From Candidatus Kaiserbacteria bacterium RIFCSPHIGHO2_01_FULL_53_31 (GTDB lineage Bacteria; Patescibacteriota; Minisyncoccia; Phycocordibacterales; Phycocordibacteraceae), in NCBI GenBank assembly GCA_001781095.1, contig MFKU01000010.1, positions 14,254 to 78,253 of the forward strand: a stretch of DNA of 64,000 bases, read 5' to 3'. Both the position numbers and the translations under genes were made by a program. Below, piece after piece: positions 14,999-57,863 of this stretch; the first letter of the stretch is position 1; every line of letters starts with the position of its first letter. The notes below the pieces were generated by a model that made no database searches, was not told the DNA's origin, and saw nothing but the letters and a program-made list of their open reading frames with translations.

Positions 14999-16840
14999 TT
15001 ATTCTATCACTGCTTTGATGCGCCGAACGCCACCAGACGATGCTTCTTCTTTTAATATCTTAAAGGTGCCGATGAGTTCGCTGGTATTCGAGATGTGCGG
15101 GCCGCCGCAGAATTCGATTGAGAACGCTTCCGAGAACTTCGGGTCGGCTTCGGTCGCATCCTTTGGTCCTATCGAGTACACGCTCACCTGCTCTGGATAG
15201 TTTGCGCCGAATTCGTGTTCAGCATTCAACCTTTCTGCTTCTTCTTTATTCATAACCGTGCGAATGACCGGTAATGCTTCTGCAATCTTCTCGTTTACAA
15301 TCTCTTCCACCTCAGCTTTCTGCTCTGGCATCATCTTGGTGCCGCACGAGAAGTCGATGCGCAGCCGCTCGCTCGTAATATTGCTTCCCCGCTGGTGGAC
15401 ATCGCTCCCGAGCACTTTTTGGAGTGCCTTTAAGAGCAAGTGATGCGCCGTATGATAGCGTATCGTCTGCTCTGCCTGATCGGCGAGGCCGCCCGTGAAT
15501 TTCTGTTCGGCACCCGCACGCGAGAGCGCCTGATGATCTTCCAGCTTCTTCTGAACTTCTTCCTTACTGATCAAAATTCCCTTCTCTTTCGCAATCTCTT
15601 CAGTAAGTTCAATTGGGAACCCGTAGGTGGTGAACAACATAAAGGCATCAATGTCCTTTCCCGACTTCTCGAGTTCGCGCATGCCATGCGTCAAAGTTTT
15701 TCGAAATTGCGCTTCTTCTTTTTCGAGTTCTTCGCGAATGGCAGATGCCGACTTCATAATAAATGAGTACGCGTCTGCATACGTCGCGCAATACGTCTCC
15801 GCGACCTTGCCAAGTACGGCGTCAGTGCTGCCAAGTTTATCCGCCTCGCGAATCGATCGACGAATCAGACGACGAAGTACATACCCTTGCTCAGTATTCG
15901 AGGGACGAATGCCGCTCGCTATCATAAAGGCCGCCGCGCGAATATGGTCCAGCACAATCCTGAAAGAACGAGTAGCATTTTGGTCGCCGTACATTTTCCC
16001 CGATCGATTTTCGAGCAATTCACGTGCCCCATCAAAGGTATCAATGAGGAAAATATCCGCGTTATCACGAGTCGCCGCTGTTAAGCGTTCGAGCCCGCCA
16101 CCAAAATCGACATTTCTGTTTGGTAACTCTTTGAAACTTCCATCTTCCTGTTTCGCGAACTGCATGAAGACAGAATTGCCGATCTCAATGAAGCGGCCGC
16201 AATCGCAATTTGGATGGCACGTCTTGCCATATTTCTCGTCGTGCGGAATATCGAAGTCATAAAAGATCTCAGAATCCGGACCTCCGATTTCCCCCGGCGG
16301 CATCTTGCTCGGTACCCCTGCCCTACTCCACCAATTCTTCTCGGCACCATACGAGTAGATATGGTCATCGGCGACACCAATTTCCTTCCAGATTTCCTTC
16401 GATTCTGAATCTGCTTCCATGCCGCTCGCCGCGTAGCCCGAAAACGTCGTTACGTACAGTCGCTCCGGATCAAGCCCGAGACTATCCTCTTTATTCGTAA
16501 GAAATTCATATATCCACGGCAGTTGCTCTGCCTTGAAATAATCTCCGAGCGACCAGTTACCAAGCATTTCGAAGAAGGTCGTGTGGCGGTTGTCACCCAC
16601 ATCCTCAATGTCTTCCGCTCGGAACGAGAGCTGAGAGTTAGCGAGCCGTGTGCCCGCCGGATGCGGCTGGCCCATAAGGAATGGAACCAAGGGCTGCATC
16701 CCGCTGCTTGTGAAGAGGGTCGTCGGATCGTTCTCGGGTACGATAGGTGCCGAGGGAATAATCACGTGTCCCCGTTTCGCGAAGAAATCCAGATACCGTT
16801 TCCGTACTTCCGCGACGGTCATATTGGGAAAAGATAACAC
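14999..16840 (-). CDS. alaS: alanyl-tRNA synthetase, short form lacking C-Ala domain
   Basis: Class II core (FTSSGMQPL, RHTTFFEMLGNWSLGDYFK) and editing domain HxxxH motifs (HTAHHLL); ends after the editing domain at 613 aa. Confidence 0.88.
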   Translation of the reverse strand: MLSFPNMTVAEVRKRYLDFFAKRGHVIIPSAPIVPENDPTTLFTSSGMQPLVPFLMGQPHPAGTRLANSQLSFRAEDIEDVGDNRHTTFFEMLGNWSLGDYFKAEQLPWIYEFLTNKEDSLGLDPERLYVTTFSGYAASGMEADSESKEIWKEIGVADDHIYSYGAEKNWWSRAGVPSKMPPGEIGGPDSEIFYDFDIPHDEKYGKTCHPNCDCGRFIEIGNSVFMQFAKQEDGSFKELPNRNVDFGGGLERLTAATRDNADIFLIDTFDGARELLENRSGKMYGDQNATRSFRIVLDHIRAAAFMIASGIRPSNTEQGYVLRRLIRRSIREADKLGSTDAVLGKVAETYCATYADAYSFIMKSASAIREELEKEEAQFRKTLTHGMRELEKSGKDIDAFMLFTTYGFPIELTEEIAKEKGILISKEEVQKKLEDHQALSRAGAEQKFTGGLADQAEQTIRYHTAHHLLLKALQKVLGSDVHQRGSNITSERLRIDFSCGTKMMPEQKAEVEEIVNEKIAEALPVIRTVMNKEEAERLNAEHEFGANYPEQVSVYSIGPKDATEADPKFSEAFSIEFCGGPHISNTSELIGTFKILKEEASSGGVRRIKAVIE

Positions 16841-18625: not shown

Positions 18626-19201
18626 TTATTGCGTAGAAATTGCCTTTTCTTGCGCATGTACCTCGGCGAGACGCTTCGTGAGTCGGTGATCGGGAAGCCG
18701 CTCCTCCGCTATCTTCAGCACCTCGCCATGGAACCAGAGATACTCCTCGTTTGGTTGTCCCCAATGCTTCAAAAGTGATTCGCCTTCCTGTTCGTATTCC
18801 TCAAGTCTACTTTCGGTGTTATCTATTTTGTCGGCGATAGCAATCAACAGTGCGTCATCGCTCGCGCGTTCGACGAGCGCAATGTACTCGTTCTTTCGCT
18901 CATGCCACGATAACGTATGTTCATTTTTTTCTTTAATCTCGCTCACGGACTCGACAAGCACAGCGACGTCTTCGTTAAATACTTTCGCTATCTCCTCGCG
19001 CGTAGTGTCAGTGTCTTCGAGCGTGTCGTGCAAGAGCGCCGCCGTGACAACGTCATCGGACGCGCCGTCTTCAGCAACGAGAATTGCGACTGAAAACGGA
19101 TGGACAATATAGGGAAGCTTCCCACGAACGATGCGCATCTGGCCATGGTGCTTTCGCGCTGCGAATTGTATGGCCTTCTTAATTTGTGGAGTGTGATTCA
19201 T
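18626..19201 (-). CDS. HD-domain hydrolase of RelA/SpoT type (small alarmone hydrolase-like)
   Basis: HGQMRIVRGKLPYIVHP...LLHDTLEDT signature of the SpoT/Mesh1 HD domain; 191 aa with no synthetase domain. Confidence 0.7.
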   Translation of the reverse strand: MNHTPQIKKAIQFAARKHHGQMRIVRGKLPYIVHPFSVAILVAEDGASDDVVTAALLHDTLEDTDTTREEIAKVFNEDVAVLVESVSEIKEKNEHTLSWHERKNEYIALVERASDDALLIAIADKIDNTESRLEEYEQEGESLLKHWGQPNEEYLWFHGEVLKIAEERLPDHRLTKRLAEVHAQEKAISTQ

Positions 19202-19228
19202 AGAGCGATTGTAACACTCGAGAAATAT

Positions 19229-19903
19229 TTATAGCCAATCGATCGGAATTTCGCCGTGTTCAATTAAATATTCGTTGACTTTACTGAAGTGCTTGCAGCC
19301 GAAGAAGCCAGAAGCGGCAGAGAAGGGCGAGGGGTGTGTCGCTTCGAGCACGAGATGTTTGCTGCGGTCGATGTGCGCACCTTTCGCCTTCGCATAATTG
19401 CCCCACAGTATAAAAACGAGATTCTCGCGCTGTTCGGACAAGGCGCGTATAACTGCGTCAGTAAAAAGCTCCCAGCCGCGGCCCTGATGCGAGCCGGCGT
19501 TATGCGCACGCACGGTCAGTGTCGCGTTGAGTAACAGGACGCCCTGCTCCGCCCAACGGGTAAGATCCCCTTTCTTCGCCGAAGCTACGCAGGGCATGCC
19601 AGTATCGCTTTCGACTTCTTTGAAGATATTTTGTAATGACGGTGGAATCGTTACCCCTTCATCTACGGCGAAGGCAAGCCCGTTTGCCTGTCGTGGGCCG
19701 TGATACGGATCTTGTCCAAGGATCACGACCTTTACCTTTTCAAACGGACACAGATCGAACGCGCGGAAAATGTTCTTCGGTGCTGGATACACTGTTCCCT
19801 CTTTGTATTCCTTTTTAACAAACTCCGTAAGCTCTTCGAAGTATTTCTGCGAGAACTCATCTGCGAGATGCGCCTTCCAGCTCTGATTAATTTTCACTTC
19901 CAT
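19229..19903 (-). CDS. ung: uracil-DNA glycosylase, family 1
   Basis: GQDPYH water-activating motif and HPSPFS motif; start at MEVKINQSW (ATG). Confidence 0.9.
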   Translation of the reverse strand: MEVKINQSWKAHLADEFSQKYFEELTEFVKKEYKEGTVYPAPKNIFRAFDLCPFEKVKVVILGQDPYHGPRQANGLAFAVDEGVTIPPSLQNIFKEVESDTGMPCVASAKKGDLTRWAEQGVLLLNATLTVRAHNAGSHQGRGWELFTDAVIRALSEQRENLVFILWGNYAKAKGAHIDRSKHLVLEATHPSPFSAASGFFGCKHFSKVNEYLIEHGEIPIDWL

Positions 19904-19906
19904 ATA

Positions 19907-19924
19907 TTGATTCTGCAGAATCAA
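19907..19924. promoter_or_regulatory. perfect 18-bp palindrome abutting the ung start codon
   Basis: TTGATTCTG/CAGAATCAA, 4 nt upstream of the ung ATG. Confidence 0.35.
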
Positions 19925-19940
19925 GCCGCGCAATTGTCCA

Positions 19941-20726
19941 TTACGACGCGGCCTTCCTTACTTTTTTATGTGCGACGAGAAGTTGCTTACCAGCGTTTTC
20001 TCGATACGTGCAGTAGTCGCAGGGTCCTCCACCAAAGGCGGTACCCATCGGCGGGATTTCATCGCTCACGAGCATTTCTTTCATCGCGAGGATCGTCTGT
20101 TCAACCCAGGTATCACTGCCCGCGTACGGGATAAGCACGATATCGAACTCCAGTTTACCGTCAAAGGCCTTCGCGTCTGACTTGCCGTTTGCGTATACGA
20201 AATAACCCGTTGGCGAGACATTGAACCCATTTCTGCGGAAGAGCCATTGGTAAATCTCCATCTGCCGTTTGTAGGAATCGTAGAGATCATCTTCGGACGA
20301 CGGGCCTTCTTTTTTGCTCGTCGCTTTGTAGTCAACGATGATGAGTTCGCCTGCCGGATTGACCCAAACGTCGTCGATACCGCCGCGTATGAAGAGATTT
20401 GTCGGTTTGTGCAGATAGTTGATACCGCGACGCAGCGCATCGCGCCACCCGTCGAGACGATCGTCCGCCAGTGGCACTGCATCAACGTCATACTGTGACA
20501 TGAGAGGATGCGCCGTGCCATTTGCCCGATGCACATCGAACTCACGCTTAAAGAGTTCGTCAACCGCGTTGTTCAGCGTGAATGCGGGACCGGACGGTCG
20601 TTTGACCCCATAGCGCAGATCGAGAAACGCGCAGCGCGGGCATTCTGAAAAGAGATCGATCTTTGATCGACTTACTTTAAACGGTTCTTTTGAAGCAGGA
20701 TCAAACGCCATATGATTCAGCGGCAA
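19941..20726 (-). CDS. Cas4/RecB-like PD-(D/E)XK nuclease with 4-Cys Fe-S cluster
   Basis: N-terminal CPRC, motifs GIDDV ... IVDYK ... QMEIYQW, C-terminal CDYC; standalone, with no cas1/cas2 or repeat array nearby. Confidence 0.7.
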   Translation of the reverse strand: MPLNHMAFDPASKEPFKVSRSKIDLFSECPRCAFLDLRYGVKRPSGPAFTLNNAVDELFKREFDVHRANGTAHPLMSQYDVDAVPLADDRLDGWRDALRRGINYLHKPTNLFIRGGIDDVWVNPAGELIIVDYKATSKKEGPSSEDDLYDSYKRQMEIYQWLFRRNGFNVSPTGYFVYANGKSDAKAFDGKLEFDIVLIPYAGSDTWVEQTILAMKEMLVSDEIPPMGTAFGGGPCDYCTYRENAGKQLLVAHKKVRKAAS

Positions 20727-21585
20727 CGACGTCAGCAGTTACGTGTGGGAGAGCGAGCAGACCGTCGGCCTCGGCGAGCAGTTCACCCGTGCGCTCGCCC
20801 GAAAGATGTAATGCATCCAGCGTACGGCGATCACGTAAAACTTCATCGACTGCGATCGTGCCCTGCTCGATGAGAATGCGTTTCTCTGCGCGCGTGAGAC
20901 CGGTGAGCGCCGTCACGGGATACACGCTTGCACGGCTCATGCGCATGAAGAGACTATCTTGCATTGGATAGCCCCAGCCGAGGAGCTCAACACCGGCGCA
21001 TTCGGCGTACGCGATTGCTTCTGTTGTAAATTTTGTATTCGTGACGAGGAGGCCGCGATCGATTGGACAGGCGCGAGCAGTGGCATCACAATTGAAAATG
21101 TCGTCGAACCGGCTCTTCACATATAACGCAACTTTCAGATCTGTTTTGTAGCCGGGATCATTGTGATATTTGAGTTCGGCAGCGAGATGTACGCCCTGAT
21201 CCTTGTGCGATGCGTAGAAGTCGACCTCGTGCGAGACGCAATGTCCTTTTATTATCTTGCGCGTCTCGACCTGCCACCCGTCTGCACGATAGAGATGGGA
21301 GATGAAATCCTCAAACGGGTGCCCCGTGGGGCCAAGTTCGAAGAGCGCGCGGCGAAGCGCATATCGCGCGGCAATCGGTCGCGCTTCTCTGCGCAGCAGT
21401 GTGAACGCACGTGTGTACACCTCACGCGAAGAAGCTCCTTGCGTGACTGTATTGGAGATGGTTTCAGCGATTCGCTCTGCCGTATGCGCTCCTGCGCCGG
21501 CCCGCTTGAGTGACGAGACGAGCCGTATCGGGTCGAAAGTTTCTGTTGTTCCGTCGGCTTTGCGTATGGCAGGCAAAGGCGTCAT
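20701..21585 (-). CDS. ATP-cone domain fused to Mrr-like restriction-endonuclease domain, with C-terminal HhH-like tail
   Basis: N-terminal IRKADGTTETFDPIRLVSSLKRAG (ATP-cone pattern), then HLYRADGWQVE...DFYASH...LKVALYVKS...LLVTNTKFTTEA (Mrr_cat-like). Confidence 0.55.
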   Translation of the reverse strand: MTPLPAIRKADGTTETFDPIRLVSSLKRAGAGAHTAERIAETISNTVTQGASSREVYTRAFTLLRREARPIAARYALRRALFELGPTGHPFEDFISHLYRADGWQVETRKIIKGHCVSHEVDFYASHKDQGVHLAAELKYHNDPGYKTDLKVALYVKSRFDDIFNCDATARACPIDRGLLVTNTKFTTEAIAYAECAGVELLGWGYPMQDSLFMRMSRASVYPVTALTGLTRAEKRILIEQGTIAVDEVLRDRRTLDALHLSGERTGELLAEADGLLALPHVTADVVAAESYGV

Positions 21586-21995
21586 AGAACGGTCGTCGTC
21601 GCATCCATACCGTTCACGGTCGCTGTTATAGGGAGACCAGCTTGTCCGGTCACGGTCGTTGAGAAATCCAGAGACGTCGGCACCTGTAGACAGATGCCCT
21701 CGTCGACAGAAAGCGTAATCGCAACATGAATTCTCTCAGTACTGGACGCATCGCCGGTGAGTGTCGCATTCGAGCTAGCTCGACTGCAGACATTCGGCGC
21801 ATCAACAGAGCCAGTGATGGTATGCACGCCTTTCTTAAACGTGTCCCGAAGCGTGACGGTGGGTACCGTTGTCGCGGTGGCCGCTTGCTTGGCAACGCTC
21901 GCGCCGTCGCGCACGCTCGGAACCGAGATGATGAATCCGACGATCACAATGCTCGCAATAATAGCTGCAGCCGCCCAAAGACGCGTATGACTCAT
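21582..21995 (-). CDS. small membrane-anchored/secreted protein, hypothetical
   Basis: N-terminal TM (AAAAIIASIVIVGFIISV), Thr/Ser-rich; ATGA-type 4-nt overlaps with both neighbours. Confidence 0.45.
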   Translation of the reverse strand: MSHTRLWAAAAIIASIVIVGFIISVPSVRDGASVAKQAATATTVPTVTLRDTFKKGVHTITGSVDAPNVCSRASSNATLTGDASSTERIHVAITLSVDEGICLQVPTSLDFSTTVTGQAGLPITATVNGMDATTTVL

Positions 21996-23944: not shown

Positions 23945-25291
23945 TTAGAGAGGCAGATTCGCCGGAGCTTCACTCGTGGCCGACTGAATGCGTTCGAGAC
24001 TCGGTGTCTCAACCGCACGCGACGGTATGTGGAAGATGGTCGCGAGTTCTTCGGTGCTCATCACCATTTCCTTGCCCACTGCCGGCTCATAGAAAAATTG
24101 GCGACGCCGATACGCGTCAATAATCCCGCGACGAAAATGATCTTTAAGCTTCGCGGCACCGATTTCCCAGGGATAATCGTCGAACTTTGCGAGCCAACCA
24201 GTGTGCTTCATGCCATTCCACCCCTCAGACGAGAATTGTTTAAAGAGGCCCGTCATGCCCGCGATGACGGTAACATCAAACTTCCCTTGCTCGACGATAT
24301 ATACCGCACGTGCGCCGACATCAAAAGCGAGTTTCGAAACGTTGCGCTCGATGGCGGCAATCTTTTCCGACTGGCCCTTCGTCGGGTTCGGGAATCCCGG
24401 GCGCTCTTCGCCGGTCACGGGATCGACGTACGGATCGCGAGTCTCCTTCCGAATGTTCGCAACAAGTTCTAACGCTTCATCCTTCCAGGTATAGGGCTTA
24501 CCCGCTTTATTAAGCTTGTTGTATTTCTCGCCCTTATGCATGCGGATGACGAGTTGGAGCCAGAGATATTCGCCCTTCCGCATCGATCCCATGAATTCGA
24601 CTAGGTTCGCGAGCGGGTCGACTTGTTCGGGCTCCTTCTGGACTTTATCGAGTCCATACTCGACATACGTTTTAATCGGTATTGGATCTTTCTCCGTGTA
24701 TTTGAAATCGCAGCCCCAGATACTCCACTCTTCGGGAGTCGCGGTCAGAAACCGTGTGTAATCCTGCGCTTCGACAATCTGCGTCCCCGGGTACTGCGCA
24801 TACATCTGTGCTTCGATGAGACGACGGAAGTTTGCCCGCGTCCAAATATAGAAATGCACCTGGCCCTCGAACGAAGCTATCTCAAGAGAGAACCACGGGC
24901 GCGTCGCGCCCTTCCAATATTTGATATACCACGTGCCCTCGCCGCCCCCGATATGCAGGCCAGAGAGAAACGCCTCCATGGCGAGCGGCGTCTTCACGAG
25001 ATTGCGTGGCGGTTTGATCTCGAGCAGGACATGCTTCTGTTTCGCGGTAAATTCTGAACGGCGGAAAATGACCCAGATTGTCCACGCGCTACCGATAATG
25101 AGCACCGGCAGCCAGAGGGGTGCGAGGAAGAGCGCCATCGAGAGAGCAAGCGAAACGACCTTCGGCATGAACACAGCCGCCATAAAGAGAAGTGCGAGAC
25201 CGAGAATAAAAAGAGGCCATGGCTGGAGCCGTACGCCGAATGTATCTTTCAGTTCGTCCGCTTTCTCATCAATTTTCGAAAACAACCCCAT
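23945..25291 (-). CDS. hypothetical membrane protein (two N-terminal TM segments, ~350-aa soluble domain)
   Basis: 448 aa; no motif recognised. Confidence 0.5.
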   Translation of the reverse strand: MGLFSKIDEKADELKDTFGVRLQPWPLFILGLALLFMAAVFMPKVVSLALSMALFLAPLWLPVLIIGSAWTIWVIFRRSEFTAKQKHVLLEIKPPRNLVKTPLAMEAFLSGLHIGGGEGTWYIKYWKGATRPWFSLEIASFEGQVHFYIWTRANFRRLIEAQMYAQYPGTQIVEAQDYTRFLTATPEEWSIWGCDFKYTEKDPIPIKTYVEYGLDKVQKEPEQVDPLANLVEFMGSMRKGEYLWLQLVIRMHKGEKYNKLNKAGKPYTWKDEALELVANIRKETRDPYVDPVTGEERPGFPNPTKGQSEKIAAIERNVSKLAFDVGARAVYIVEQGKFDVTVIAGMTGLFKQFSSEGWNGMKHTGWLAKFDDYPWEIGAAKLKDHFRRGIIDAYRRRQFFYEPAVGKEMVMSTEELATIFHIPSRAVETPSLERIQSATSEAPANLPL

Positions 25292-25426: not shown

Positions 25427-26500
25427 CTACACAACCGAGTAGCGGCCGTCCTTCAGGCGCTTGAAATGTCGAGGGTCGTTCAGATTAACGAGAATGGTGT
25501 TGTCCTTGACGAAGCGCGCGCGTCGCACATGCTTGATGATCTCGTCTTTCTTCAACGGGCCATTCTTCTCGAGCACTTCGTGGATAACGTCGCGCACGAC
25601 GCCAGGAGTGTAGCCCCATTCGGTAAGTGCATAAAGGCCGCGGCCAACGAGTACAAAGCGAGGATCCTTGATGAGCTCGTTATGTGTCGTCGCGATGTGC
25701 GCCTTCTTAGAGAAGAGTGCGCTGATTGCCTTCGAGACTTCAGAGAAGTGCATCGGGGAGCCGTGGCGCTTGATAGCAAGATAGGCGTAGTCGCGGATGC
25801 CTTTTATGCGGATGGCCGGTGCAGTCGCGCGACCCCACTCGGCGAGCGGGTTGCTGCCGATGTGCTTGGAGAGCGTGAGCCAACGTTTCAGAACCTCCTC
25901 ATTCTTATACGCATCGTTGACTCCCTTGAGTTCGTCGAGGAAGCGATCAAGAAGCTCTCCCTCTGGGAACACATCGTCATCTTTGAGCGAGGAATAGAGC
26001 CTAGTGAGCGCCTCGTGGATCTTCTTTGCAGTCGCGGCGTCCACGTGCCAGCGCGCGAGGAACTCGTCAGTCTCACGTTCGCGAATAAATGCAGAGCCGA
26101 CGACGAGCAAGAAACGGAATCGGTTGCGCGTCTTGTCATCTTTCCCGAGCATGTTGAGAAGCGTATCTTCGGCCACGATGGCGCCAAGGGATTCGATGTA
26201 GCGCGCGAGCTCGCCAAACGCTGCGCCTGACTCCTTAAACACCTTGCTTCCGCGGATGGCAGAGAGTCCGGCGGCCTCAATCTGTCGAACGCGCTCGCGA
26301 GTAATATTCAAACGATCCCCGATGGCTTCAAGCGTCTCGCTCTTGGGGCTCGTGCCGAGGCCAAAACGCTGGATCAGCACCTTGCGCGAACGCTCGGACG
26401 CTGCGGCCAGGAGCCGCTTAACGAGGGCGGTGCTGTCGAACGAGAAAGAGGCGGTATTTGCGGCCTTTCCGTTCTTCTTTTTGTTAGTTATGACAGCCAT
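25427..26500 (-). CDS. sigma-70 region-4 HTH domain protein
   Basis: RFGLGTSPKSETLEAIGDRLNITRERVRQIEAAGLSAIR is a near-consensus sigma70_r4; the remaining ~250 aa are unassigned. Confidence 0.55.
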   Translation of the reverse strand: MAVITNKKKNGKAANTASFSFDSTALVKRLLAAASERSRKVLIQRFGLGTSPKSETLEAIGDRLNITRERVRQIEAAGLSAIRGSKVFKESGAAFGELARYIESLGAIVAEDTLLNMLGKDDKTRNRFRFLLVVGSAFIRERETDEFLARWHVDAATAKKIHEALTRLYSSLKDDDVFPEGELLDRFLDELKGVNDAYKNEEVLKRWLTLSKHIGSNPLAEWGRATAPAIRIKGIRDYAYLAIKRHGSPMHFSEVSKAISALFSKKAHIATTHNELIKDPRFVLVGRGLYALTEWGYTPGVVRDVIHEVLEKNGPLKKDEIIKHVRRARFVKDNTILVNLNDPRHFKRLKDGRYSVV

Positions 26501-38758: not shown

Positions 38759-39994
38759 ATGTCTGAACCGCTTTCAACTGAACCCTATAAAGGCGTCCGC
38801 GATTTTTATCCCACCGACTGGGCACGGCTTCAGACGATATTCACTCGCATTCGCGAGACGCTCGCCCTCTGGGGGTATGAGGAATACAACGCTTCCCCGC
38901 TCGAGCGCGCCGAGCTCTATGGGGCGAAGACTTCGGAGGAAATTGTAAGCGAGCAGACCTATACCTTTACCGATCGCGGCGACCGCCGTGTTACGCTCCG
39001 CCCGGAGATGACTCCGACCTTGGCCCGCATGGTCGCCGCGAAGCGCCGAGAGATGCCCTTCCCGCTTCGCTGGTTCTCGATTCCAAATATCTTCCGCTAT
39101 GAACGCCCTCAGAAGGGCCGCCTGCGCGAGCACTATCAGCTCAATGTCGACCTCGTCGGTATCGCGAGTAGTGAAGTAGATATCGAGATCGTCAAGATCG
39201 CTTCTGAAATAGTGCGGGCGTTCGGTGCGAAGGAGAGTGACTTCACCATTCGCGTTAATTCTCGTGCACTCCTCACCGCCGCCTGTACTGCCGCTCTGCT
39301 CGACGCCGATGCGACGCGCGCATACCTGCACCTGCTCGACAAGAAATCGAAGATGCCGGCCGAAGAATTCAATGCGGCGCGTGAGGCTATCACGACGACT
39401 GACCCGCTTCCACTCATCGATTCCACCGAGATAGAATCATTCGTCGCGACGCTTAAGGAACACGGAATCGGTAATGCCGTTTTCGATTCGACACTCACGC
39501 GCGGGTTCGATTACTACACGGGCGTCGTGTTCGAAATTTTTGATACTGATCCAGCGAATCCCCGCTCCATATTCGGAGGCGGTCGCTTCGACAAGCTGGT
39601 TGCCCTTTTCGGCGGCGATCCTATTCCCGCAGTCGGATTCGGCATGGGCGATGTGACGTTTGCTGATTTCCTCGAGACGCATGGGCTCACGCCGAGCGAA
39701 GCCGGCAAACGACCGCAGCTCTACATTGGTACTCCCAATTTAAGCAATATACCTGCTGCACAAGCATTCGCCGATATGCTGCGTGCGCAAGGCGTGCGAG
39801 TATTCGTCAATCTAAGCGAGCGCGCTCTCGGCGACCAGATTAAAGATGCCGTGAAGCGCAACATTCCACTCTTCATAGCCTATGGTGCTGACGAGGTCGC
39901 GAGTGGCACCGTAAAATTGAAAACACTCGCGATGAGCGAAGAAATTTCTATTCCGATGTCAGAACTCGCCTCGAAAATCCAAAGTAGCAATTGA
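38759..39994 (+). CDS. hisS: histidyl-tRNA synthetase
   Basis: KGVRDFYP, FRYERPQKGRLREHYQLNVDLVG; class II with anticodon-binding domain. Confidence 0.92.
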   Translation: MSEPLSTEPYKGVRDFYPTDWARLQTIFTRIRETLALWGYEEYNASPLERAELYGAKTSEEIVSEQTYTFTDRGDRRVTLRPEMTPTLARMVAAKRREMPFPLRWFSIPNIFRYERPQKGRLREHYQLNVDLVGIASSEVDIEIVKIASEIVRAFGAKESDFTIRVNSRALLTAACTAALLDADATRAYLHLLDKKSKMPAEEFNAAREAITTTDPLPLIDSTEIESFVATLKEHGIGNAVFDSTLTRGFDYYTGVVFEIFDTDPANPRSIFGGGRFDKLVALFGGDPIPAVGFGMGDVTFADFLETHGLTPSEAGKRPQLYIGTPNLSNIPAAQAFADMLRAQGVRVFVNLSERALGDQIKDAVKRNIPLFIAYGADEVASGTVKLKTLAMSEEISIPMSELASKIQSSN

Positions 39995-39996
39995 AC

Positions 39997-40578
39997 ATGC
40001 GTGCTATCACCTTCGACATCGAATCCATTTCAAACTCGTCCGTGCGGGGGCATGTCGATGTCAACGAGCAAGAGCTCACCGTCGTGGCAATTCACGATTC
40101 TCTCACCAACGAATATTCTTCGTATTTTAAAGAACAACTGCACCTCCTGTGGCCAACGCTTGAACGAGCCGACCTCTTGATTGGATTCAATTCCAACACA
40201 TTCGATATTCCGCTTCTGAATCGATATTACCCGGGTGACCTCACTCACTTCCCCTCACTCGACCTGCTCCTTGAGGTGCAGAAAGTTCTTGGTCGTCGCA
40301 TTCGGCTACAATCCCTCGCCGAAGCAACCCTCGGACGCGGGAAGAAGGGCGACGGGCTCAAGGCGGGCGAATGGTGGAAGGGGGGGGAAAGAGACAAGGT
40401 ACGCGAATATTGCATCGAAGACGTGCGCCTCACGCACGATCTCTACGACTACGCACTTAAACACGGAGTCCTCAAGTATAAAGATCTGCGCGATATTCGT
40501 GACATCAAGCTCGACACCTCCGGATGGGATACGGCGGCCGCGACATCCCCGACAATGACCCATGCCCTTCCCTTATGA
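39997..40578 (+). CDS. DEDDy-type 3'-5' exonuclease domain protein
   Basis: Exo I FDIES, Exo II FNSNTFDIP, Exo III YCIEDVRLTHDLY. Confidence 0.65.
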   Translation: MRAITFDIESISNSSVRGHVDVNEQELTVVAIHDSLTNEYSSYFKEQLHLLWPTLERADLLIGFNSNTFDIPLLNRYYPGDLTHFPSLDLLLEVQKVLGRRIRLQSLAEATLGRGKKGDGLKAGEWWKGGERDKVREYCIEDVRLTHDLYDYALKHGVLKYKDLRDIRDIKLDTSGWDTAAATSPTMTHALPL

Positions 40579-41249: not shown

Positions 41250-42095
41250 CTATTCTTCCACGAGACGCAAGCGATACATATTAAAAGAGTCCTCGCCTTC
41301 GAACATGTCAGAAGGGTTTGGCAGGAACACGCGACGGCTCGAGAGCTCCTTCGTGGCGTCATTCACGAGTCGGCGAAATACTTCAAACTCCTCCTTTACA
41401 TTTTCGTACTCAAGCACATAGCGTCGCATCTGTGACGAGCCATCAGCATTCCTCCTCTTCTTGCATTCATAGACAATGAACCGCCGAACCGGTCGGTCGA
41501 ACATCTCGCGCACGGTGTAATAGTTGAAAATAGCCTGCAGGATAAATAGCGGCTTCCCTGCGCCACTTTTACTAAACGCATCGACGAATTTGTGGTCCAC
41601 GATGTCGACCGCACTCGAGTCCCCGCGCGACTCCACTACTAAATCCGAAATAGCCTTTATTGGCAGCGCAAGCCCTTCAACCGATACGACTCCCGATATC
41701 TCGACACCCAACACCTTGTGCTTCGGAGCCCGCATTAAGTAAAAGCCGACAGCCTGCAAATAATCCTTCTCCATCGCTGCACGCTTCGTTTTCTTCGCTC
41801 TTACCGACTTCGCCTTGCCGAAATTGATTTCAAAATCCGCAACCGAACGCAGGTATTCAAGCCCGAGGCGTTTAGCCATCTCTTTATCCGCGCCACTATA
41901 GAAATGCTGGAGAGCGATGTGGCCGGCGCGCCCAATAATCCCAGCTGGTCCAGACGGCGTGTCGTAAATCTTCTCTACGTACCGCTTGTACCACGCTAAG
42001 GGATTTCTCAGAAACGCCATCAATGACGAATGGCTCCAATGCTCGATTGGAAGTTTTGACTTTCTCTTGCCATGCTTTCTTTTTGCGGTAGCCAT
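41250..42095 (-). CDS. RecB-family PD-(D/E)XK nuclease (no Fe-S cluster)
   Basis: ISDLVVES ... VDIVDHK ... QAIFNYY motifs. Confidence 0.55.
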   Translation of the reverse strand: MATAKRKHGKRKSKLPIEHWSHSSLMAFLRNPLAWYKRYVEKIYDTPSGPAGIIGRAGHIALQHFYSGADKEMAKRLGLEYLRSVADFEINFGKAKSVRAKKTKRAAMEKDYLQAVGFYLMRAPKHKVLGVEISGVVSVEGLALPIKAISDLVVESRGDSSAVDIVDHKFVDAFSKSGAGKPLFILQAIFNYYTVREMFDRPVRRFIVYECKKRRNADGSSQMRRYVLEYENVKEEFEVFRRLVNDATKELSSRRVFLPNPSDMFEGEDSFNMYRLRLVEE

Positions 42096-42205: not shown

Positions 42206-43414
<1,209 letters not shown>

Positions 43415-43444: not shown

Positions 43445-45139
43445 TTAAGTTCCGATGAAGGAGAGTCGAACTGATAGCGCCGCACACACCGCTTGTGCAC
43501 CGGCGACTGCGGCCGCATCTCCCGCGGCTTCTGCTCTGCGTAAATCCTCTACTGCTTTTTGATACGCCTCGCGGATAACCGCTGATTCAAAGGCGTGCAG
43601 AAGTTCGTCCGCCGCCGTCTCTAACGGGTCCTCGCCGCATGCTTGTTCCGCCTCAAATACGGCAGACTCGGGGAGGGTCTCGAGAGGAGGCACCTGAACT
43701 CCAGTAATTCGAGCGTACTCTGCTTCTATACGTCTGGCAAGGGGGGTATCGGGATAAGCGCAGAGTGCACCAAGGAGTTGCAGCTCGCGCGTCTCACGTG
43801 CAGAGGTGCGAGGTGTGAGGTTTGAAATGCGAGAAGACGTGCCATCATCCCTCATGCCTCGCACCTCATGCCTCGTATGTGAAAGCGTTTCGCGAACCGC
43901 TTCGGTCGAGAGTCCGAGCGAGCGAGCCGCAACCTGCAAGAAATGTTCGCGCTCCATCGGGCTCTTCATCGCGGCGATGAGAGGCAACACGACCGTCTCG
44001 GCCGTGCGCACCAATCGATGAGGATCAGCTTCTTTTTCAGAAAGTACCGAAAGAAAAAATTCGACAATGGGTTTCGCCGCTTTCACTCGTGCTGAAAAAT
44101 CATTGTGATCTTCAGAAATTAGATCTGCCGGATCTTTTCCTTGTGGGAGTCGTACCGCCTTGACTCGCAATCCTTCGCGAAGTGCGAGTTGCGCCGACTT
44201 CGCCGTCGCGGCGAGCCCCGCGGTATCGGCGTCGAGCACGAGCATCAAGTTCTCGCTGTAGCGCTTCATGAGCGCCACATGCTTCTCCGTGAGTGCCGTA
44301 CCAGAGAGTGCCACAGCATTCTCAAAGCCAGCTTGGTGCGCGTGGAGCACATCCATCTGACCCTCGACAAGGAGTGTGAATCCCCGCGTGCGAATCGCAT
44401 CCTTCGCTCGATCAAGTGCGAAAAGAATTTCAGACTTATGATAGAGCGCGGTCTCAGGACTATTTAAATATTTCGCTGGTTCGTCTGCCGACAAAGCTCT
44501 GCCAGTAAAGGCGACGACACGCCCGACAACATCACGTATCGGGAACATCAGCCGATTGCGAAAGCGATCATAATAGGTGCCCTTTTTCCCATCGGCCTCT
44601 TTAATTAATCCTGCAGCGAGCAATTCTTCAATAGTGAAATTCTCCGCCGTCATTGCTTCAAGCAATGCGCGCCACGCATCGGGCGCATAGCCAAGACCCC
44701 AGATCGTACGCGTATCATCCGCGAGTCCGCGACTCTTTGCATATGCCTTAGCAATACTCTCGGGAAAATTTCCCTCATACCACCTCGCCGCCCGTTGCAT
44801 TACCTCTCGCAGCCGTTCTTTCTTCGACGTCGCCTCGTCGCCCGCTTTACCCCGAGCGAAGTCGAGGAGCACTCCCGCCTTTTCTGCGAGAATCTTCAGT
44901 GCACCTTTAAAGTCAACCCCATCAATTTTCTGAACAAACGAAAATATGTCGCCGCCCTCGTCACAGCCGAAGCAATGCCACGACCCGCGCTCCACGCTCA
45001 CGTGGAAACTGGGCGTCTTCTCTTTATGAAAGGGGCACAATCCCATCATCGACTTCCCTGCCCGCACGAGCTTCACGTGCGGACTGACGATATCGATAAT
45101 CGAGAGACGGTCTTTAATCTCGGAAACAGAGTCAGTCAT
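43445..45139 (-). CDS. dnaG: DNA primase
   Basis: Zinc ribbon CPFHKEKTPSFHV...CFGC, TOPRIM domain. Confidence 0.92.
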   Translation of the reverse strand: MTDSVSEIKDRLSIIDIVSPHVKLVRAGKSMMGLCPFHKEKTPSFHVSVERGSWHCFGCDEGGDIFSFVQKIDGVDFKGALKILAEKAGVLLDFARGKAGDEATSKKERLREVMQRAARWYEGNFPESIAKAYAKSRGLADDTRTIWGLGYAPDAWRALLEAMTAENFTIEELLAAGLIKEADGKKGTYYDRFRNRLMFPIRDVVGRVVAFTGRALSADEPAKYLNSPETALYHKSEILFALDRAKDAIRTRGFTLLVEGQMDVLHAHQAGFENAVALSGTALTEKHVALMKRYSENLMLVLDADTAGLAATAKSAQLALREGLRVKAVRLPQGKDPADLISEDHNDFSARVKAAKPIVEFFLSVLSEKEADPHRLVRTAETVVLPLIAAMKSPMEREHFLQVAARSLGLSTEAVRETLSHTRHEVRGMRDDGTSSRISNLTPRTSARETRELQLLGALCAYPDTPLARRIEAEYARITGVQVPPLETLPESAVFEAEQACGEDPLETAADELLHAFESAVIREAYQKAVEDLRRAEAAGDAAAVAGAQAVCAALSVRLSFIGT

Positions 45140-45597: not shown

Positions 45598-45993
45598 TTA
45601 TCGCTTCTTAGCGTTTCTGGAGTGTGACTTGAGCCAGGTAGCAATTACCGCGGCCTCAATCTTATCGGTTGTCACAGACAATACAAACGTCTCAACTGCC
45701 TTGTTCGTCGCGGTCAATACATGTCCATTTACAAAGAGAAACCGCGCGCACGCGGCAATACCCGTTCTCTTATTTCCATCCACAAATACGTGATAATTAA
45801 CGACGGCTTCGAGATAGACTGCCGCCTTTATAAATAGGTCGGGGTAGAGGTCTCGCCCGCCGAACGTAGCGCGCGGCTTGTTGGCGGCTGCAGCCAGGAG
45901 ATGCGGATCACGGACGCCATGGGAGCCGCCGGTCGCATCGATAACCTCAGAGTGGATAACGAGAATCGACTCTGCGGTAAGATACCGAATCAT
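45598..45993 (-). CDS. doc: Doc-family (Fic fold) toxin
   Basis: Fic/Doc motif HVFVDGNKRTG. Confidence 0.8.
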   Translation of the reverse strand: MIRYLTAESILVIHSEVIDATGGSHGVRDPHLLAAAANKPRATFGGRDLYPDLFIKAAVYLEAVVNYHVFVDGNKRTGIAACARFLFVNGHVLTATNKAVETFVLSVTTDKIEAAVIATWLKSHSRNAKKR

Positions 45994-57191: not shown

Positions 57192-57220
57192 AAAGTTAGG
57201 ACATCGGATGTCCTAACTTT
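57192..57220. repeat. REP-like palindromic hairpin (left)
   Basis: AAAGTTAGGACATCGGATGTCCTAACTTT; overlaps the transposase stop codon. Confidence 0.7.
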
Positions 57221-57863
57221 TGTATTCCAGATAGTCGCTTTCTTGAGCAAGGCTTGGGTCATGAATAACTTCAACGATTGTCCGCTCATACTCTGACCGC
57301 GTCCCGAGCATTGGATTAAGCACATCGGTCCTAATAATTGACGGGAAATTTCGCACGCCCAAATAATCGAGATGACTGCTCCAGCGATAGTCGAGTAATG
57401 CTTCGAGAGCCTTTTTAGTATTTCTAACCTCGCCCGCGCGCCATTCTGGATGCACATAATCGAGAGGATTGAGATGTATATAAAATGGAATATAGAGAAA
57501 ATGCGCATCACGTTTTATTTGCACCTTGCGATATTTACCCTGCCAGAGAGCACCCGAGCGTTTATGCCGATTATTGAAATATTTTGTATAGCCCATATTA
57601 ATCTTTTGCATAAACAGAGAAATCCCATTCTCGATACGTTCTGTAACGAGCAGATGATAGTGATTCTTCATTAAGCAATACGAATGGATATCGACGAGTT
57701 GTTCACGAGCATGATCTTCGCGCCGCTCATTCAGAATGTAATTCGGCGTCGTGTTGCGATCATTTAAGGCATACAGGTTGTGAATGAAGCGGAGACGGTC
57801 GTGCTTGTCTGTAACGATATCTCGTTTCTCCACCCCACGCCCAATAAGGTGCCAGAATTCCAT
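57213..57863 (-). CDS. Y1 HUH transposase (REP-associated tyrosine transposase / IS200-like)
   Basis: HUH motif NHYHLLV; catalytic tyrosine region GYTKYFN; 216 aa. Confidence 0.7.
   Translation of the reverse strand: MEFWHLIGRGVEKRDIVTDKHDRLRFIHNLYALNDRNTTPNYILNERREDHAREQLVDIHSYCLMKNHYHLLVTERIENGISLFMQKINMGYTKYFNNRHKRSGALWQGKYRKVQIKRDAHFLYIPFYIHLNPLDYVHPEWRAGEVRNTKKALEALLDYRWSSHLDYLGVRNFPSIIRTDVLNPMLGTRSEYERTIVEVIHDPSLAQESDYLEYKS

Follow-up and report, generated by a model that had tools for sequence, protein, structure and literature searches.

Organization of the locus

We have analyzed a 64,000-nucleotide stretch of the genome of Candidatus Kaiserbacteria bacterium RIFCSPHIGHO2_01_FULL_53_31 (contig MFKU01000010.1; the whole stretch is hereafter called the window), in which a protein of 294 aa joins an ATP-cone to an Mrr-type PD-(D/E)XK nuclease core. 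This protein, here called the fusion, is the central subject of this work. Its gene lies in a run of five consecutive minus-strand open reading frames (ORFs) filling positions 18626-21995, at the same coordinates as in an original prediction made from the sequence, which had read the group as one tightly coupled nuclease module and a candidate defence or DNA-surveillance system. The features are as follows:

18626-19201, minus strand: RelA/SpoT-type HD domain protein, 191 aa (HD_4 9e-18; TIGR00691 N-terminal region 4e-26)
19229-19903 (ORF to 19933), minus strand: family-1 Ung (NCBIfam ung equivalogs, 327 bits vs cutoff 223)
19907-19924, no strand: 18-bp perfect palindrome TTGATTCTGCAGAATCAA, in the 37-nt spacer from the Cas4-like stop codon to the ung ATG
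19941-20711 (ORF to 20726), minus strand: standalone Cas4-like RecB-family PD-(D/E)XK nuclease, 256 aa (PDDEXK_1 6.7e-12)
20701-21585, minus strand: the fusion, ATP-cone plus Mrr-type PD-(D/E)XK plus AF1548-like C-terminal helix-hairpin-helix, 294 aa
20704-20955, minus strand: fusion C-terminal helical, helix-hairpin-helix-like domain (AF1548-like_C), residues ~211-294
20956-21330, minus strand: fusion PD-(D/E)XK (Mrr_cat) nuclease core, residues ~86-210, aligned to AF1548 D38/E51/K53
21331-21585, minus strand: fusion ATP-cone domain, residues ~1-85
21582-21995, minus strand: 137-aa protein, membrane-anchored at its N-terminus, without known domain (ORF)

When the longest ORFs are taken, the spacing along the series 137-aa gene, fusion, Cas4-like gene, ung and HD gene is -4, -26, +7 and +27 nt, and this agrees with the overlaps and gaps originally described. 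The true starts of the Cas4-like gene and of ung likely lie slightly downstream. The former is probably the ATG at 20711, because a 100% identical database protein has 256 aa, and the latter is probably the ATG at 19903, as alignment to the ung models begins at residue 11. With these starts the Cas4-like gene overlaps the fusion gene by 11 nt, and the gap between the Cas4-like gene and ung becomes 37 nt, with the palindrome inside it. At the borders of the group the HD ORF overlaps the start of pepF by 32 nt, and the 137-aa ORF shares 4 nt with mnmA and 4 nt with the fusion gene.

The fusion combines an ATP-cone with a restriction-type nuclease

Scored by itself the fusion of the window reaches 24.1 bits with Mrr_cat (cutoff 21) and 24.8 bits with the Pfam ATP-cone model PF03477 (cutoff 25.8). 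Since this single-sequence score for the ATP-cone is marginal, the call was examined at the level of the family and of the structure. Of 40 diverse homologues, 38 matched the ATP-cone at E<=0.01 (best 1.3e-10), 38 matched Mrr_cat and 30 matched AF1548-like_C (PF22357) in Pfam. The N-terminus is the ATP-cone, and Pfam scans of the window protein and of these 40 homologues found no Mrr_N or other DNA-reader domain. Residues 94-275 match AF1548 (PDB 1Y88) with a phmmer E value of 2.9e-21, and a profile of the 40 homologues matches the same protein at 5.9e-51 over the nuclease core as well as the helical C-terminal domain.

An AlphaFold model computed from an alignment of 70 sequences (33-83% identity) reached a pLDDT of 94.3 and a pTM of 0.90; an earlier model from a shallow alignment (75-85% identity) had a pLDDT of 64 and was discarded. 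Structure comparison showed that the model shares its fold with 1Y88 and with the ATP-cones of NrdR and ribonucleotide reductases (RNR). The modelled cone has the ATP-cone fold, i.e., a beta-hairpin and a four-helix bundle, with a pLDDT >90, and can be superposed on NrdR at 2.1-2.4 A. RuvA, RAD51 and Pol X have helix-hairpin-helix domains similar to the C-terminal domain of the model. For the nuclease core, the structural neighbours that are closest among characterised proteins include type IV restriction enzymes and ancillary nucleases of CRISPR systems; the nuclease domains of MspJI, AspBHI, Card1, Can2, Cdn1, NucC and Avs are among the neighbours.

The catalytic-type residues D122...E137-x-K139 are invariant across the same 70 sequences, as are H119, E120 and the T182-N183-T184 motif. 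D122, E137 and K139 align to the D-x12-ExK stretch of AF1548, a protein which the 2007 GOS paper predicted to be an endonuclease with D38/E51/K53 as its catalytic residues (PMC1821046). Within the cone, K9 is invariant across the family, G12, F17 and S25 vary little or not at all, and the R/K21 position is conserved. The fold, the intact D-ExK triad and the conservation of the cone are thus well established. Four cysteines (C116, C166, C173 and C196) are invariant in the close clade and only C116 and C196 family-wide; C166 and C173 sit in an insertion that AF1548 lacks, and the cysteines may possibly form a metal site or a disulfide.

The originally predicted fusion is therefore upheld, with Mrr_cat above its cutoff and the cone backed by 38 of the 40 homologues and by the fold. 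By its domain make-up the protein is a genuine ATP-cone nuclease, and by analogy with known cones it is probably gated by ATP or dATP. The earlier idea that a cone set on a PD-(D/E)XK core would mean nucleotide-gated cleavage is reasonable, as the cone fold and K9, G12, F17 and R/K21 are kept family-wide. The proposed system had also been taken to be uncharacterised, and literature searches yielded no study of an ATP-cone/nuclease fusion; on the ATP-cone in connection with endonucleases, Mrr, thymidine phosphorylase, Patescibacteria or defence, nothing relevant came up beyond the AF1548 prediction. It must be said that the architecture is already visible in database annotations, which read "ATP cone domain-containing protein" or "restriction endonuclease". 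The one new element at the locus is the fusion, a member of a broad uncharacterised family in which an ATP-cone is followed by an AF1548/Mrr-type PD-(D/E)XK core and, at the C-terminus, by a helix-hairpin-helix domain.

Conservation and gene order in close relatives

The databases hold more than 1,800 relatives of the fusion, the best 120 of which (74-85% identity) all come from Paceibacterota, Kaiserbacteria and Taylorbacteria assemblies. Synteny was assessed in 80 species-representative Paceibacteria/Kaiserbacteria genomes, with the loci picked by their similarity to the fusion. In all 80 the whole 12-gene block is syntenic, in the order sigma-like gene, 448-aa gene, MltG, MnmA, 137-aa gene, fusion, Cas4-like gene, Ung, (HD) and, further along, AlaRS, the HD gene being found downstream of ung in some relatives only; in the window PepF stands between HD and AlaRS. 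The median identities to the proteins of the window are 75% (fusion), 76% (Cas4-like protein) and 76% (Ung), and for the comparators AlaRS, MnmA and MltG they are 69%, 64% and 56%. The strong purifying selection on the fusion is clear, and identities above that of AlaRS mark the genes of the fusion, the Cas4-like protein and Ung as housekeeping genes under strong constraint and not as participants in an arms race.

The pairing of the fusion with the Cas4-like gene is much less regular than their conservation. The two are usually non-adjacent, as a gene for a 158-aa membrane-anchored DUF7282 protein lies between them in 57 of the 80 genomes (L006 8867-9343 and 56 others), and in several relatives the interval is occupied by an opposite-strand Mur ligase gene, with or without an asparagine synthase gene (AsnB). 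In the window the DUF7282 gene has been lost (around 20701-20726), which leaves the fusion and Cas4-like genes overlapping. A further gene, for an 87-aa MGMT C-terminal-domain protein (DNA_binding_1, PCHR motif), stands between the Cas4-like gene and ung in 37 of the 80 (L053 10162-10425 and 36 others); tblastn found no match to it anywhere in the 64-kb window, where just the 37-nt spacer (19904-19940) is left. The most constant partner of the fusion is MnmA, which is a steadier neighbour than any repair gene, and this indicates that adjacency here largely reflects frozen synteny.

Distant relatives and other genomic contexts

At 50% identity the fusion family forms 1,024 clusters, 377 of them below 1e-30 and most of them full length, with members in Patescibacteria, Bacteroidota and Chlamydiota. 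A distant set of 80 metagenomic loci (40-57% identity to the fusion) fell into two context classes, Patescibacteria-type and those outside the Candidate Phyla Radiation (non-CPR). Adjacency was counted in the loci with at least 2.5 kb downstream:

Patescibacteria-type (MnmA upstream), n = 20: Cas4-like gene within four genes in 9/20, immediately adjacent in 5; other neighbours are small MgtC, putative family-4-type uracil-DNA glycosylase (UDG), MGMT domain and AlaRS
Non-CPR, n = 31: Cas4-like gene within four genes in 0/31; beta-CASP RNase in 14/31; thymidine-phosphorylase (TP) family gene in 8/31

The fusion/Cas4-like pair, whose co-occurrence had been expected for a module, is thus confined to one Patescibacteria lineage, where it is present in 9 of the 20 distant loci and is often interrupted, and it is absent from all 31 others. 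Nor does the Cas4-like gene depend on the fusion, since homologues with neither the fusion nor Ung nearby were found in 14 further loci. Co-occurrence of the pair does not extend past the frozen gene order of one lineage.

Patescibacteria fusion genes adjoin either MgtC or base-damage repair genes (Cas4-like, MGMT domain, UDG). A small MgtC-family membrane protein (161-182 aa) is encoded directly downstream of the fusion in L083, L085, L086, L088, L090, L100 and L102 and in L180 (4700-5215); the window and its close relatives have no MgtC gene directly after the fusion. MgtC is the sole neighbour common to the two context classes. At the position of ung, several loci carry instead a UDG-superfamily protein of ~200 aa with a GEAPG motif (L089 9626-10243; L093, L104, L105, L118, L136, L149 and L150), which by this motif would be a family-4-type UDG and looks like a non-orthologous replacement of family-1 ung.

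The non-CPR contexts are of a different kind. According to Pfam and NCBIfam, the beta-CASP RNase has Beta-Casp and RMMBL domains and resembles aCPSF1, and the TP-family gene encodes an archaeal-type thymidine/AMP-phosphorylase-family enzyme. A PRK07199-type PRPP synthetase gene is frequent beside the fusion gene, and the same string often holds PPK2, MgtC+DUF4010, a Mg/Ca-type P-type ATPase, tandem USP, PFK and a 2-hydroxyacid dehydrogenase. The fusion stands at the head of this recurrent string in Bacteroidota and Chlamydiota, e.g., in L081 (1972-6597), L082 (5995-10602) and L177 (5387-14735); further examples are L179 (7001-13452) and L181 (7001-13087). No description of an operon of fusion, beta-CASP RNase, phosphorylase and PRPP synthetase was found in the literature. 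These operons suggest that the turnover of nucleic acids would be coupled to adenylate, Mg2+ and nucleotide economy.

The accompanying proteins and the palindrome

The Cas4-like protein is a PD-(D/E)XK nuclease by its PDDEXK_1 match, and in the alignment of its homologues the RecB-type motifs D113/D114, D127-Y-K129 and Q150xxxY154 (256-aa numbering) are invariant, together with four cysteines arranged as C24xxC27 ... C231xxC234, i.e., CxxC...CxxC. It misses the cutoff of the Cas4 equivalog TIGR00372 (30.8 bits vs 65), true Cas4 proteins are just 26-27% identical to it, and searches of solved structures by single sequence or by profile gave no significant match. No CRISPR or tandem repeat array and no cas genes are present in the 64-kb window, the neighbours being housekeeping genes. 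Of the Cas4-like Fe-S nuclease with a four-cysteine cluster originally proposed, the PD-(D/E)XK nuclease and the four cysteines stand; the cysteine pattern is not that of Cas4, and an Fe-S cluster may be present. The window encodes a second standalone PDDEXK_1 nuclease, of 281 aa and without a cysteine cluster (41250-42095, minus strand), which adjoins rpoD (42206-43414) and dnaG (43445-45139) and lies next to the gene for an RNase_H_2/PolB-exonuclease-like protein (39991-40578, plus strand). This second pair also occurs upstream of the fusion gene in L180. That the two PDDEXK_1 nucleases of the window are paralogues was rejected, as they show no significant similarity.

Ung was correctly identified: it passes the family-1 equivalog models NF003589 (326.7 bits vs 223) and TIGR00628 (287 vs 186). 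The standalone SpoT-type HD domain was also confirmed, by HD_4 (9.3e-18) and by a match to TIGR00691 restricted to positions 1-121 (E 4e-26), i.e., the N-terminal region of that model. The protein carries an H...HD...ED motif (LHDTLED) without a synthetase domain; it resembles a small alarmone hydrolase and is predicted to be a (p)ppGpp hydrolase. The 137-aa protein has a hydrophobic N-terminus and no Pfam, NCBIfam or PADLOC match, and its gene is found at position -1 of the fusion in 44 loci at ~53% identity. Paralogy between this protein and the DUF7282 protein of the relatives was tested and rejected.

The palindrome, which had been suggested as an operator, is not conserved. One 18-bp perfect palindrome was observed in the window and 0.23 were expected from shuffles; its sequence is absent from all 80 related loci, and a perfect palindrome of at least 12 bp is present within 60 nt upstream of ung in only 3 of 62 relatives. 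As RNA it would form a 7-bp hairpin whose fold z-score of -1.26 is unremarkable against shuffles. A role as operator or as RNA element is not supported, given the non-conservation and the non-significant fold. Because the MGMT-domain gene occupies this spot in relatives, the palindrome may mark a deletion junction.

The five genes are part of a long co-directional array

Nearly all genes from position 1 to ~34.5 kb of the window lie on the minus strand, and they encode DnaK/DnaJ/GrpE-type proteins, ribosomal proteins, RpoA, AlaRS, PepF and others. Of the 51 same-strand neighbour pairs in the window, 25 are separated by gaps of at most 30 nt and 10 overlap. A scan of the window for promoter- and terminator-like sequences gave matches at or below shuffle expectation, none of which brackets the five genes. 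The proposal of one tightly coupled operon is not sustained, given that tight spacing is common in the window, that no promoter or terminator bounds the group and that the array extends over ~34 kb. Overlap and co-direction of genes in streamlined genomes are no evidence of a functional module.

Several other genes of the window deserve mention. The 448-aa protein (23945-25291, minus strand) has no Pfam or NCBIfam match; its gene keeps its syntenic place in more than 50 loci and overlaps the start of mltG by 74 nt. The neighbouring gene encodes a 357-aa protein with Sigma70 region 4 and HARE-HTH domains (25427-26500, minus strand), with ~79% identity across relatives. The AlaRS ORF (14999-16840, minus strand) has 613 aa, well below the typical length of bacterial AlaRS, and AlaRS-like ORFs of relatives are similarly short (548-600 aa in L085, L086, L088 and L093; 581 aa in L180). 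A 131-aa Fic/Doc-family protein (45598-45993, minus strand) and an IS200-like Y1 transposase-family protein (57213-57863, minus strand), both distant from the five genes, are the only mobile-element or toxin-like genes noticed in the window.

Interpretation

We read the five genes as one segment of an extended housekeeping array, co-directional and inherited vertically, that is typical of Paceibacteria/Kaiserbacteria, and not as one system, and the fusion as an uncharacterised AF1548-family nuclease probably gated by ATP or dATP; our confidence in this account is a little better than even. In the ATP-cones of NrdR and ribonucleotide reductases nucleotide binding alters the oligomeric state. 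By analogy, the cone of the fusion would bind ATP or dATP and switch the nuclease, probably via its oligomeric state, and cleavage of nucleic acids would then be tied to the adenylate or dNTP state of the cell. The cellular role would be a housekeeping one, namely turnover or repair of nucleic acids in connection with nucleotide economy, and not immunity. Several points weigh against this account. The window protein alone falls just under the Pfam ATP-cone threshold. The Arg that follows the invariant Lys in classical cones (R10) is Ala in the fusion family, so the ligand could differ from ATP/dATP. The substrate (DNA or RNA), the ligand and the direction of regulation are all inferred family-wide. 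The choice of loci by similarity to the fusion slightly inflates its conservation, although only the fusion figure is biased in this way. Lastly, type IV restriction enzymes and ancillary nucleases of CRISPR systems are among the structural neighbours of its nuclease core.

This last point bears on the explanation that we consider the least probable of all, namely that the five genes are an uncharacterised anti-phage or abortive-infection module in which the cone senses collapse of the nucleotide pool and frees the Mrr-type nuclease, assisted by the Cas4-like protein, Ung and the (p)ppGpp hydrolase. A sensor-plus-nuclease design is typical of defence effectors; the fusion contains an Mrr_cat catalytic domain, and among its structural neighbours MspJI, AspBHI, Card1, Can2, Cdn1, NucC and Avs there are several ligand-gated immune nucleases, so that a defence role is compatible with the structure. 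The genomic evidence points the other way. The models of PADLOC-DB v2 gave no match for the fusion, Ung, the HD protein or the 137-aa protein, and the Cas4-like protein gave just weak, sub-threshold Cas4 matches (~30 bits). No methyltransferase, CRISPR array or other defence gene was found near the five genes, and the four or five genes do not travel together outside one lineage. No homologue of the fusion was found in 50,697 phage records or in 2.9 million viral contigs (IMG/VR), and both plasmid copies that were identified lie inside non-CPR metabolic operons; its absence from these phage and viral collections and its non-mobile distribution are established. The variable, island-like distribution expected of defence genes was not found, as the position is stable in 80 genomes at ~75% identity, and such conservation in housekeeping synteny across 80 species is the opposite of defence-island behaviour. 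The proposed defence or DNA-surveillance function is accordingly not supported: the genes behave as conserved core genes.

A lineage-specific DNA-repair operon is a serious, if minority, possibility. The Patescibacteria fusion would work with the downstream Cas4-like 5'-3' exonuclease, the MGMT-domain protein and UDG, perhaps as a structure-specific or AP-site/mismatch endonuclease, and the cone would license incision only when dNTP/ATP pools support repair synthesis. Gene order lends this some weight: cone, Cas4-like, MGMT domain (PCHR) and family-1 Ung follow one another, with MGMT in 37 of the 80 close loci; distant loci have cone, Cas4-like and a putative family-4-type UDG, or cone and then UDG directly; a different UDG family appears to have replaced Ung at the same position; and in L133 the cone is followed directly by MGMT. 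The core is moreover NucS-like, and the C-terminal domain is like the helix-hairpin-helix of RuvA, RAD51 and Pol X. The pairing is nevertheless not kept in roughly half of the distant Patescibacteria loci, nor in any of the 31 non-CPR loci, in which genes of RNA and nucleotide metabolism are the partners; opposite-strand insertions part the fusion from the Cas4-like gene in some genomes; and MnmA is a steadier neighbour than the repair genes, as expected if adjacency is largely frozen synteny.

Those non-CPR partners suggest a more specific version of the housekeeping role, which we regard as speculative and unlikely: the family would consist of conserved nucleases under the control of adenylate status, and perhaps of Mg2+ status, that start rRNA or DNA breakdown under energy or Mg2+ stress, with the products feeding the beta-CASP RNase, the AMP/thymidine-phosphorylase-family enzyme, PRPP synthetase and PPK2. 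If true, this would be an undescribed starvation or nucleotide-economy pathway common to Bacteroidota, Chlamydiota and Patescibacteria, with the fusion kept as a core gene in auxotrophic Patescibacteria. Very improbable, in our judgement, is a catalytically or regulatorily degenerate fusion, i.e., a structural or DNA-binding protein whose cone is a relic, in a cluster without nucleotide sensing. The sub-threshold ATP-cone score of the window protein and the Ala in place of the classical Arg after the invariant Lys would fit such a protein. The invariance of the D-ExK triad, H119, E120 and the TNT motif over 70 sequences at 33-83% identity argues against it, as do cone residues K9, G12, F17 and S25, invariant or nearly so, and a cone with pLDDT >90 that superposes on NrdR at 2.1-2.4 A.

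Comparison with known systems

The closest relative of known structure is AF1548 of Archaeoglobus fulgidus (PDB 1Y88; Mrr_cat plus AF1548-like_C), a structural-genomics protein that has the same fold as the fusion nuclease, with D...ExK in both. AF1548 lacks the ATP-cone as well as the insertion bearing C166 and C173 of the fusion, and no biochemical characterisation of it was found in the literature. NucS/EndoMS is equipped with an N-terminal DNA-binding domain of its own and with a PCNA/beta-clamp motif, and the fusion is not a member of that family at the sequence level. The type IV enzymes Mrr, MspJI and AspBHI carry an N-terminal domain that reads modified DNA (Mrr_N or SRA-like), which the fusion lacks, and its distribution and genomic context are unlike those of such defence genes.

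Can2, Card1, Cdn1 and CBASS NucC are, like the fusion as predicted, ligand-gated PD-(D/E)XK nucleases; their sensor is a CARF domain or a cyclic-oligoadenylate pocket, whereas that of the fusion would be an ATP-cone. They are also defence-island genes, in contrast to the conserved, housekeeping-syntenic fusion family with no PADLOC match. The Cas4-like protein shares RecB motifs II and III, QxxxY and four conserved cysteines with Cas4, AddB and the RecB family. Cas4 has the cysteine pattern C...CxxCx5C (one N-terminal, three C-terminal) in place of CxxC...CxxC, and the protein further differs from Cas4 in scoring far under the Cas4 cutoff, in having no cas genes or CRISPR array beside it and in occurring alone elsewhere.

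The ATP-cones of NrdR, NrdA, NrdB and NrdD act on a zinc-ribbon repressor or a reductase, and that of the fusion is joined to a nuclease; NrdR and RNR cones have an Arg next to the invariant Lys where the fusion has Ala, and ligand binding by the fusion is predicted. The host lineage consists of organisms unable to make their own nucleotides, and the fusion is more conserved there than AlaRS, which points to an important housekeeping role. The cross-phylum link to the beta-CASP RNase, the AMP-phosphorylase-like enzyme, PRPP synthetase, PPK2, MgtC and the P-type ATPase provides a concrete hypothesis that is testable in organisms that can be cultured, e.g., Pontibacter actiniarum. CRISPR and CBASS immunity supply known examples of ligand-gated restriction-fold nucleases, and in ribonucleotide reductases and NrdR the ATP-cone is known to act as an allosteric switch; if it also switched a nuclease, this sensor would have a new output.

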